A program made the position numbers and the translations under genes. From an uncultured Candidatus Peribacteria bacterium (GTDB lineage Bacteria > Patescibacteriota > Gracilibacteria > UBA1369 > UM-FILTER-53-11): DNA of 48,044 nucleotides. The notes under the pieces are model-generated. The model searched no databases. It was not told the DNA's origin and was given only the letters and a program-made list of their open reading frames with translations. The DNA lies in contig CAYHBN010000002.1 of assembly GCA_964354865.1 (NCBI GenBank), positions 1 to 48,044 on the forward strand. The letters are read 5' to 3'. Position 1 is the stretch's first letter. Each line of letters opens with the position of its first letter. Positions 6,410-9,949 of the stretch are shown here, one piece after another.

Positions 6410-6528
6410 AAATTAATAGAGAAACGATGCGCTTCATTAAAACACATAATTCAAATCAATCAAGAGAACGACTGTCATAACAAAAAAAACAGACTAACTC
6501 TGCTTTGCAGAACCGCTCGCTTTTTTAA

Positions 6529-6819
6529 TGGTGGGCAGGGAGGGATTCGAACCCCCGAAGACGTTAAGCCGACAGATTTCATGTGTCCCTAAGATTTCTC
6601 ATAGGCATGGACTATATCTTTACCATTCCGATTTCTCGATGAAGGTATTCCGGTATCTAGTCTCTACGGCGCTCTCCAACAATGTTGAAGTTCCCACGGT
6701 ATTAGCATATCTCGTTAAAGACTTAGCTTTCACCGTTATCCCGGAAAGTTTACTGTAAGGTTTCCCTTACAGGCTGCCTTTTGACAGTCTGTTGCGTTTA
6801 GCCACTTCGCTACCTGCCC
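6529..6819 (-). tRNA. tRNA-Tyr (anticodon GUA), class II, interrupted by a 204-nt intron in the anticodon
   Basis: The 5' exon (6819-6784) is GGGCAGGTAGCGAAGTGGCTAAACGCAACAGACTGT. The 3' exon (6579-6529) is AAATCTGTCGGCTTAACGTCTTCGGGGGTTCGAATCCCTCCCTGCCCACCA. Joined, they give the loop CU-GUA-AA, a long variable arm and acceptor GGGCAGG/CCTGCCC. The joined sequence closely parallels E. coli tRNA-Tyr as I recall it. Confidence 0.85.
6580..6783 (-). mobile_element. Group I (IC3-like) self-splicing intron within tRNA-Tyr
   Basis: The 5' splice site follows a U. Exon CUGU can pair with intron GCAG (a U-G wobble P1). The intron ends in G. It contains GGGAAACC and GGUGAAAGC hairpins, GUAGAGACUAGA (the J6/7-P7 motif as recalled from the Azoarcus and Anabaena tRNA introns) and a matching AUAGUCC P7' strand. 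No ORF lies inside. Confidence 0.75.
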
Positions 6820-6824
6820 ATTTT

Positions 6825-7418
6825 TCAAACTAACAAATCGCACAATACCTTTTCGCACATATGCAGTATTTTTTCAAGCAACTTCTTATCATTATAACGA
6901 ATATGTACAACTCCGTACGAAAGCTTTTTAGGAGAATTTGGCAGTGTCTGTCGAATATATGGCTGAGTAAACTGTGATTTCTGAACAGCTAAAACACGAG
7001 ACCAATAATCAATTATTTTCGGGATATCTTGGTCACTAAAACAATATAGATATATTCTAATTTTGTCTTTCTGTACTCCACATATCTCACGCAAAAACTT
7101 CATAAAAACCAAAAGGGTTTCCTTATCAGAATTCACAAAATCCACCGTATTACCAGATTTAGCACCTTCGCCTTTGTATAACATTAGAGCGGCAAGAAAT
7201 AAATCTTTCTCAATATTGAGCAGTGGATCTTTAAAGTTATAACTAAGAGGTTTCGAATCAAACCTAATCTTATTTTGTTCTTTTGCATTCCTGCGCTCAA
7301 CTCCAGACTTAATTAAATGCCTGTAGATAGTTTTAATACTCACCCCAAATACATCAGCTATTTGCTGGGCACTCTGGCCTTGTTTATATCGGGAAACAAT
7401 ATCTAAATCTAAAGACAT
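6825..7418 (-). CDS. HTH plus LAGLIDADG-like homing-endonuclease-family protein
   Basis: N-terminal resolvase-type HTH (SAQQIADVFGVSIKTIYRHL). LAALMLYKGEGA resembles a single LAGLIDADG motif, followed by VDFVNSDKETLLVFMKFL as in LAGLIDADG_3 proteins. The stop codon is 5 nt from the 5' end of tRNA-Tyr. Confidence 0.55.
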   Translation of the reverse strand: MSLDLDIVSRYKQGQSAQQIADVFGVSIKTIYRHLIKSGVERRNAKEQNKIRFDSKPLSYNFKDPLLNIEKDLFLAALMLYKGEGAKSGNTVDFVNSDKETLLVFMKFLREICGVQKDKIRIYLYCFSDQDIPKIIDYWSRVLAVQKSQFTQPYIRQTLPNSPKKLSYGVVHIRYNDKKLLEKILHMCEKVLCDLLV

Positions 7419-7494: not shown

Positions 7495-7570
7495 TGGAGC
7501 CGCTTGTCGGAATCGAACCGACGACCCACAGTTTACAAAACTGTTGCTCTACCAGCTGAGCTAAAGCGGC
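7495..7570 (-). tRNA. tRNA-Thr (anticodon UGU), CCA encoded
   Basis: The reverse complement reads GCCGCTTTAGCTCAGCTGGTAGAGCAACAGTTTTGTAAACTGTGGGTCGTCGGTTCGATTCCGACAAGCGGCTCCA. Anticodon loop is TT-TGT-AA. Confidence 0.9.
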
Positions 7571-9872: not shown

Positions 9873-9949
9873 CGGGGTGTGGCGAAGTTGGCTATCGCGC
9901 CTGGTTTGGGACCAGGAGGCCCTGGGTTCGAGTCCCAGCACCCCGACCA
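9873..9949 (+). tRNA. tRNA-Pro (anticodon UGG), CCA encoded
   Basis: Acceptor CGGGGTG/CACCCCG. Anticodon stem CCTGG/CCAGG with loop TT-TGG-GA. T-arm CTGGG-TTCGAGT-CCCAG. Confidence 0.9.

Follow-up and report, generated by a model that had tools for sequence, protein, structure and literature searches.

The tRNA-Tyr(GUA) gene of an uncultured Candidatus Peribacteria bacterium was examined in a stretch of 48,044 nucleotides (nt) (GenBank assembly GCA_964354865.1, contig CAYHBN010000002.1, positions 1 to 48,044), which is referred to below, at its full length, as the window. The gene, on the minus strand at 6819..6529, was split inside its anticodon by a 204-nt insertion. The insertion is very probably a group I intron of the IC3-like type, most likely self-splicing, and it interrupts the anticodon loop of a tRNA-Tyr(GUA) gene that is probably the only one of the cell. 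The exact boundaries of the insertion, its homologues in other lineages and the covariation of its predicted fold all pointed to a group I intron.

The split tRNA-Tyr gene and the anatomy of its intron

Exon 1 (36 nt; 6784..6819, on the minus strand like all parts of the gene given below) comprised the 5' strand of the acceptor, the D arm, the 5' strand of the anticodon stem and C32-U33-G34-U35. The exon side of helix P1 was formed by the CUGU at its 3' end (6787..6784). Exon 2 (51 nt; 6529..6579) comprised A36-A37-A38, the 3' strand of the anticodon stem, the long variable arm, the T arm and the 3' strand of the acceptor, with A73 and an encoded CCA at its 3' end. The intron between them (6580..6783) had no open reading frame (ORF) inside and was assigned to the IC3-like introns named type A here, class Tyr.4Ug. 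Exon 1 ended in ...ACAGA-CUGU, and exon 2 began with AAA-UCUGU. The joined exons were called by ARAGORN as a class II tRNA-Tyr(GUA) of 87 nt, as the preliminary description of this DNA had proposed for two halves lying 204 nt apart. A related genome fragment, L005, has a tRNA-Tyr gene without an insertion, and the joined exons were 100% identical to it over 87 nt; the MurB of L005 was 80% identical to that of the window. The insertion point between U35 and A36 of the GUA anticodon, also proposed there, was confirmed by the exact excision to the L005 allele. The splice boundaries were fixed and could not slide: C and G are the first and last nucleotides of the intron, whereas exon 1 has U at its end and exon 2 begins with A. 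The predicted junction of the ligated exons was GACUGUAAAUC, and the spliced loop would read CUGUAAA.

The intron and a 197-amino acid (aa) ORF next to the gene were both present in the window, and L005 had neither, which represents a presence/absence polymorphism between relatives. In the synteny comparison based on MurB, the loci of the two closest relatives, L004 and L005, stopped shortly after MurB; that of L005 still extended to the pair of tRNA-Thr and tRNA-Tyr, and that of L004 stopped before it. The tRNA-Thr(UGU) of the window, the upstream neighbor of tRNA-Tyr, was located at 7495..7570 (minus strand); in the relatives L005 and L006-L008, the two genes were only 4-18 nt apart. The split gene was missed by ARAGORN in its default mode and by the Rfam tRNA model in the scan of the window. 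The isotypes Asp, Ser, Thr and Asn that were returned by the intron mode of ARAGORN (window and L017-L216) were rejected as artefacts of a slid splice site.

The Rfam covariance model of group I introns (RF00028, Intron_gpI) matched 6794..6588 on the minus strand with 51.3 bits, above the gathering threshold of 50. The E value was 3.1e-10 over the whole 48-kb window; therefore, a chance match was excluded. The elements of the intron were then assigned along its length. In the intron part of P1 (6774..6783), C+1 was paired with G6 across an AAAA loop, and the internal guide GCAG (6777..6774) formed base pairs with the CUGU of the exon, and U35·G was located at the splice site. P2 (6753..6772) was the hairpin CUGUAAGG-GAAA-CCUUACAG, the loop of which (L2) was a GNRA loop. 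The 5' strand of P3, UUCCGG (6741..6746), had its partner CCGGAA at 6653..6648. P4 (ACGGUG/UACCGU) enclosed P5 (6696..6736). The canonical 11-nt tetraloop receptor is CCUAAG...UAUGG, and the P5 motif GCUAAG...UAUGC resembled it with one swapped pair. In P6/P6a (6668..6695), GG..CC closed CUUCAAC-AUU-GUUGGAG. The 5' strand of P7, G(A)GACUA with a bulged A (6658..6664), had its partner UAGUCC at 6614..6609 and formed a pseudoknot with P3; P7 is presumed to be the guanosine-binding helix, an assignment made after Azoarcus and Tetrahymena. P8 (6621..6647) was a hairpin with a GAAA loop. J8/7 (AAGAUA), together with the 3' strand of P7 (6609..6620), fitted the Rfam consensus AAGAUAUAGUC. The last segment (6580..6608) contained P9.0 (A176-U203 and U177-A202), the P9 hairpin CCUAUGA-GAAA-UCUUAGG and the terminal omega G (G204) at 6580, which the 2-bp P9.0 immediately preceded. 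The minimum-energy fold of the single sequence gave P2-P6, P8 and P9 (z = -2.7).

The elements that the preliminary description had named were thus recovered. These were the exon-terminal U and the CUGU/GCAG pairing with its U-G wobble, the intron-terminal G, the GAAA tetraloops, three of which were found (L2, L8 and L9), and the strings GUAGAGACUAGA and AUAGUCC. Both strings, which had been matched there to the P7 strands of the Azoarcus and Anabaena introns, occur in the Azoarcus tRNA-Ile and the Nostoc-type tRNA-Leu rows of the published seed alignment. The U·G of P1, the omega G, the helices P3-P9, which include a P4-P6 domain, and the pseudoknot between P3 and P7 are the features of a group I core. 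P2 without P2.1, a simple P5 without P5abc, the GNRA loops L2 and L9, the receptor motif and P9.0 matched the IC3 architecture when the element map was compared with the Azoarcus and Leu rows of the published alignment. The tRNA-Tyr host, the insertion after loop nucleotide 4, U(-1), G(omega) and the homologous core placed the intron in the class Tyr.4Ug.

Covariation of the fold and homologous introns

The conservation of the fold was evaluated for 28 type A introns, which were aligned with MAFFT without structural information. RNAalifold recovered the anticodon stem, P1, P2, P3, P4, P5, P6, P8, P9.0 and P9, and 29 of its 51 predicted pairs had compensatory double changes. With P7 added as a pseudoknot, standard pairs were present in 97.6% of the 1568 cells, and double changes were found for 29 of the 56 pairs. 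When the 3' partners were slid by 1-3 columns as a control, only 33-42% of the cells were paired. Moreover, for four of five measures, the values of the alignment were not reached in any of the 500 shuffles. The U·G pair at the P1 splice site was present in 28/28 introns, and the P1 intron pair +1/-1 covaried (AU 19, CG 5 and GU 4). Compensatory changes occurred in all eight pairs of P2, and double changes occurred in four of the six pairs of P3 (100% paired), four of the five basal pairs of P8 and four of the five pairs of P9; one base pair of P5 switched from GC to CG in 4 sequences. The P9.0 pair also covaried (CG 14, UA 9, AU 3 and UG 2), and its position beside the terminal G independently fixes the 3' splice site. 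For a functional ribozyme fold, computational evidence does not get stronger than the covariation across the type A introns. Together with the Rfam match and the exact excision, this covariation bore out the early suggestion of a group I, IC3-style intron.

The homologues were collected in two ways. In the collection guided by the neighboring ORF, which gave the same tRNA-Tyr locus from 80 species (L017-L096), 39 species carried an intron at exactly the same tRNA-Tyr site. All 39 introns started after CUGU, with GCAG 3-16 nt downstream, and all the complete ones ended with G before AAA. Type A, to which the window intron belongs, was found at 26 genome loci, all from the candidate phyla radiation (CPR). 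The aligned type A Tyr introns were 188 to 237 nt long; hence, the 204-nt intron is of ordinary length for its family and similar in size to the Azoarcus intron, and the early remark that it was among the smallest did not hold. Type B was found at 13 loci (L039, L051, L057, L058, L061, L062, L064, L066, L069, L070, L071, L074 and L088), mostly in metagenome-assembled genomes of Omnitrophota. The type B introns had a more Azoarcus-like core, a length of 181-282 nt and the 3' end CACUUG or similar, and they shared the 35/36 site and the adjoining ORF family with type A. A 373-nt type A Tyr intron (L053, 2116-2488) contained an insertion of ~170-200 nt in P8. A long inverted repeat (GGGTCTGTCGTATAATTGC / GCAATTATACGACAGACCC) flanked this insertion, which looked like a secondary hairpin or an insertion similar to a miniature inverted-repeat transposable element (MITE).

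In the second collection, metagenome contigs were scanned independently of the ORF with the type A core CCGTAGAGACTAGATACC-N(15-45)-GATATAGTCC, a pattern that held no exon or ORF sequence. At least 120 loci (L097-L216) were obtained, and their hosts were resolved by the U(-1)/G(omega) rule. The host was tRNA-Asn(GUU) with the junction CUGU|UAA at 35 loci or more, tRNA-Asp(GUC) with CUGU|CAC at no fewer than 18 loci, and tRNA-Tyr(GUA) with CUGU|AAA at a minimum of 9 loci; most other loci among the matches listed were truncated or left without a host by this heuristic. The resolved hosts among the matches listed were all tRNAs with a GUN anticodon, which share the C32-U33-G34-U35 that pairs with GCAG. 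The relatives of the window intron in tRNA-Asn and tRNA-Asp occupied an identical CUGU| site, and this fits a spread among tRNAs that share the complement of the 4-nt guide. Among the introns compared, the nearest neighbors were mostly host-specific (Tyr to Tyr, 34/37; Asp to Asp, 18/18), and 10 of the 35 Asn introns were nearest to a Tyr intron. The mixing of Asn and Tyr fits occasional jumps between tRNAs sharing the 4-nt target, according to the reverse-splicing model (PMC3984707). A relaxed specificity of an endonuclease would predict the same pattern. One intron type at CUGU| in the tRNAs for Tyr, Asn and Asp provides a clean natural case for movement directed by 4 nt. To our knowledge, movement guided in this way has long been proposed and has not been demonstrated. 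A different group I intron, with the core CGAACGACUGACAAGGG ... AAGAUACAGUCUA, split tRNA-Thr(GGU) after U36 in three loci (L025, 2362-2622; L033, 3232-3511; L090, 2191-2468), and it probably represents the Thr.5Ug class of Williams.

Predicted splicing and alternative explanations

The splicing steps proposed for the window intron are those of standard group I chemistry. The tRNA-Tyr gene would be transcribed with the upstream ORF and perhaps also with tRNA-Thr. Within the precursor RNA, C32-U35 of the exon would pair with the guide GCAG to form P1, placing U35·G at the 5' splice site, and the P3-P8 core would fold with the P3/P7 pseudoknot. The GNRA loops L2 and L9 would probably dock on helix receptors, P5 with its motif similar to the 11-nt receptor among them. 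A free guanosine bound in P7 would then attack after U35. Subsequently, G204, positioned by the 2-bp P9.0, would replace this guanosine in the site, and the 3'-OH of U35 would attack before A36, so that the exons would be joined and the loop CUGUAAA restored. Instead of a strong P10, the anticodon stem (A27-A31/U39-U43) probably holds the exons together. A precedent is the Anabaena pre-tRNA, the splicing of which needs exon pairing in the anticodon stem, according to the account of Zaug et al. (1993) given in a review (PMC3984707).

Several points weigh against self-splicing in an only tRNA-Tyr gene. Splicing was predicted from sequence alone, and P10 was weak or absent in the window. The RF00028 score was barely over the gathering threshold, and the homologous introns of other lineages scored 45.7-49 bits, which is below it. 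P4 was invariant, and P7 was complementary and invariant in 28/28 introns; both helices are therefore backed by complementarity alone, because covariation is uninformative for invariant positions. Furthermore, the visible part of the genome is 48 kb, and a second, intact tRNA-Tyr might be located elsewhere. A protein cofactor might also be needed for splicing in vivo.

The last point leads to the alternative that survives best, which we consider unlikely. The intron would be a protein-dependent group I ribozyme and not truly self-splicing, with the product of the 197-aa ORF as a maturase or RNA chaperone, or with a host factor. The CYT-18 tyrosyl-tRNA synthetase is such a host splicing factor in fungal mitochondria. 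The ORF (6825-7418, minus strand) occupies the spacer between tRNA-Thr and tRNA-Tyr, and its stop codon is only 5 nt before tRNA-Tyr on the same strand, which speaks for this alternative, as does the weak P10. The ORF family was found directly 5' of tRNA-Tyr and on the same strand in ~73 of the 80 CPR and Omnitrophota species, and between tRNA-Tyr and tRNA-Thr(GGU) in 5 further species of the 80; the intron was present at 39 of ~78 ORF loci. The 19 ORFs closest to that of the window were all beside type A introns. Moreover, endonucleases that take on maturase roles have been described in a review (PMC3984707).

The same loci provided the evidence on the other side. Among the scorable ORF loci, 39 had the intron, whereas 34, each from a different species, had an intact tRNA-Tyr beside the ORF. 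The matches listed from the ORF-independent scan were searched with the hidden Markov model of the family, and only introns with enough upstream sequence were counted. The ORF was directly upstream of 5 of the 9 independently sampled Tyr introns (close family members), 3 of the 23 Asn introns (distant members with 97-107 bits; L101, L113 and L155) and none of the 13 Asp introns. The remaining introns (4/9 Tyr, 20/23 Asn and 13/13 Asp) had no such ORF upstream, which argues against dependence on its product. The only recognizable module of the ORF was a helix-turn-helix (HTH) of the DNA-binding type, and efficient self-splicing in vitro is known for small tRNA introns of the IC3 type, among them those of Azoarcus and Anabaena; both points also count against a splicing protein. 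An obligatory ORF-intron module was rejected on the same grounds, namely the ORFs beside intact genes and the introns without an ORF. The ORF and the intron are enriched for each other, and neither requires the other.

Much less probable is a decaying pseudogene, in which the intron would no longer splice and another locus would supply tRNA-Tyr. The 48-kb extent of the known sequence and the borderline Rfam score leave room for it. Against it, the exons were identical to the intact gene of L005, every core element was intact, and a locus copy with 99.98% identity (L001) was present in an independent assembly from an independent sample. SRR24858484 contains the locus of L001. The compensatory changes across 28 species require selection for function and hence argue against decay. 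CPR genomes are small and usually have single tRNA copies, which is also unfavorable to a second supplying locus. A protein-spliced (bulge-helix-bulge) intron or an insertion of the insertion sequence (IS) or MITE type instead of a ribozyme can be dismissed: the intron mode of ARAGORN can model a generic anticodon-loop intron, but the insertion was at 35/36 and not at the canonical 37/38, the insert had no terminal inverted repeats and no transposase, we know of no tRNA splicing endonuclease in bacteria, and the covariance-model match and the complete, covarying 204-nt group I core already refute both.

The self-splicing group I intron therefore remained the favored explanation. If the tRNA-Tyr gene is single-copy, as it probably is, a ribozyme reaction would be needed for the reading of every tyrosine codon in this organism. 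The tRNAscan-SE program was not designed to find group I introns in tRNAs (PMC8450103). Because gene finders miss split genes, CPR and Omnitrophota genomes can seem to be without tRNA-Tyr, tRNA-Asn or tRNA-Asp. Such an apparent loss affects the estimates of genome completeness and the inferences made on the genetic code or auxotrophy.

The adjoining protein family and comparison with known systems

A terminator-like hairpin followed by a T run was located 3' of tRNA-Tyr by a consensus scan (6496..6514, minus strand). The 76-aa ORF antisense to the tRNA and the intron (6528-6758, plus strand) is a mechanical reading frame without support and should not be annotated. The named homologues of the MurB of the window were from Candidatus Peregrinibacteria and Gracilibacteria. 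A gene similar to the pilin of type IV secretion systems was near the split gene, as is typical of such CPR genomes, and the standard genetic code was used.

The N-terminus of the 197-aa ORF product contained an HTH of the resolvase type (PF02796, E = 2e-6), and no Pfam, NCBIfam or PHROG match was obtained for the 145-aa C-terminal region. Homologues of ~200 aa, all unnamed, were found in many CPR lineages and in Omnitrophota, and in the exhaustive profile search, 156 clusters (50% identity) had E <= 1e-30. The best 150 matches listed in this search were all close members of the family, with no bridge to a named family among them. The longer members differed by extra HTH modules only. The residues Y81, E84, G85, N96, W139, F150, K152 and G169 were invariant, also when distant members were included. 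The AlphaFold model, which was built with 45 homologues, had a predicted local distance difference test (pLDDT) value of 95.6. In the Foldseek comparison of this model with the PDB, no match was below E = 1e-3 (best E = 1.6e-3, with a template modeling (TM) score of ~0.3), and the profile search of the PDB gave HTH proteins only.

The motifs 'LAALMLYKGEGAK' and 'MLYxxEGxK' suggested a LAGLIDADG endonuclease, and this candidate was rejected. No Pfam, NCBIfam or PHROG profile matched outside the HTH, the hhalign probability against I-CreI was 0.2%, and the order of elements in the AlphaFold model was alpha-beta-alpha-beta-alpha-beta-beta-alpha and not alpha-beta-beta-alpha-beta-beta-alpha. Among the weak matches of the model in BFVD (TM <= 0.35), proteins with an endonuclease or LAGLIDADG annotation were enriched; those named LAGLIDADG had E values of ~0.03-0.11 and TM scores of 0.24-0.30.

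The ORF may be functionally linked to the intron. Positions 30-40 read GACUGU|AAAUC in 37/39 of the intron-bearing tRNA-Tyr alleles versus 14/34 of the intact alleles that adjoined the ORF (Fisher p = 4e-7, uncorrected for phylogeny). This bias may reflect a target specificity beyond CUGU or an escape from such specificity. The layout was that of collaborative homing: the intron had no ORF, a free-standing gene adjoined it, both were absent from L005, and the arrangement recurred in 39 species. A free-standing homing endonuclease with an ORF-less intron fits this context, with the endonuclease role being putative. A broader proposal is offered tentatively, as it is rather doubtful. The ORF family could be a new free-standing, site-specific selfish gene, plausibly a homing endonuclease of an undescribed family that is directed to the anticodon-arm DNA of GUN tRNAs, and IC3 introns (types A and B) would have settled there repeatedly. 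In that case, the introns would shield the tRNA gene they occupy from being cut and would also be carried along by the repair event, and collaborative homing would occur in the cellular genomes of two unrelated uncultured phyla. In any case, the recurrent ORF can be tested as a candidate for a homing-type protein of a new kind, or for an intron partner, in unculturable lineages. At a separate tRNA gene of L005, an 84-aa GIY-YIG ORF (2461-2715) was directly 5' of tRNA-Pro(UGG), a further small gene of the nuclease type immediately beside a tRNA gene; it was absent at the tRNA-Pro of the window (9873-9949).

The classical bacterial tRNA introns are Leu.3Ug, fMet.2Ug, Ile2.5Ug and Arg.5Ug, and the number of settings was raised to 21 by Williams (2020; bioRxiv 10.1101/2020.01.27.920355), who counted, for unnamed phyla from metagenomes, 0.49 split tRNA genes per genome. 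The seed alignment of that preprint holds Mba143.Tyr.4Ug and also Asn.4Ug and Asp.4Ug. Hence, the Tyr(GUA) host and the insertion position, which the preliminary description had considered unusual, are indeed outside the four classical cases, but they had already been catalogued as Tyr.4Ug. The preprint is a computational catalogue; its main text does not mention Tyr, and it urged splicing tests only for the C(-1) Leu class. CPR tRNAs carrying group I introns have also been mentioned in passing (PMC8172020). In our literature search, the library coverage of which was limited, no report was found of experimental splicing of the Tyr.4Ug class, of the logic connecting GUN anticodons and the guide, or of the neighboring ORF family.

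The window intron shared with Mba143.Tyr.4Ug the host, the CUGU|AAA site, U at -1, the 3' terminal G, the GCAG guide and the core blocks GAUAACGGUGAAAGCUAA, AAUACCGUGG, CCGUAGAGACUAGAUACC and AAGAUAUAGUCCAUG. The two differed in that the organism of the window is a Peregrinibacteria-like member of the CPR, and the peripheral P2, distal P5, P6a, P8 and P9 were unlike. With the Azoarcus pre-tRNA-Ile(CAU) intron (IC3, Ile2.5Ug), it shared a similar size, the collinear helices P1, GAAA-looped P2 and P3-P9, GUAGAGACUA in J6/7-P7, AUAGUCC in P7', the GAAA loop L9 and a receptor of the CCUAAG...UAUGG type in P5. The Azoarcus intron, in contrast, is inserted in tRNA-Ile2 after the 5th loop nucleotide (36/37), its guide pairs with CAU, and its P4 and P6 sequences are different from the ACGGUG/UACCGU and GG...CC of type A; the type B Tyr introns of Omnitrophota were closer to it than the type A intron of the window. 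The tRNA-Leu(UAA) introns of cyanobacteria and plastids (Leu.3Ug, Anabaena/Nostoc) are likewise of the IC3 type, lie inside the anticodon, contain the same P7 strings and have their exons held by the anticodon stem. They differ in the host and in the insertion after the 3rd loop nucleotide (34/35); in addition, their vertical inheritance is ancient, and their P9 region is longer. The window intron is thus a further member of the class catalogued in 2020 and ordinary in kind for the CPR.

The less expected part is an uncharacterized DNA-binding protein family tied to GUN tRNA genes, which may be a new homing-type element. The T4 endonuclease SegB is free-standing and is encoded inside the tRNA gene cluster of T4. 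Collaborative homing, in which free-standing endonucleases act together with ORF-less introns, has been described in phages (PMC3984707, PMC2790892, PMC6083498), and by analogy it is the closest precedent for the arrangement of ORF and intron in the window. The window differs from the phage systems in its cellular setting (CPR and Omnitrophota), in an ORF without a recognizable nuclease domain, and in the occurrence of each partner apart from the other. It resembles them in that an ORF-less intron is only 41 nt from the gene of a free-standing DNA-binding protein and that this gene family is tied to the target gene.

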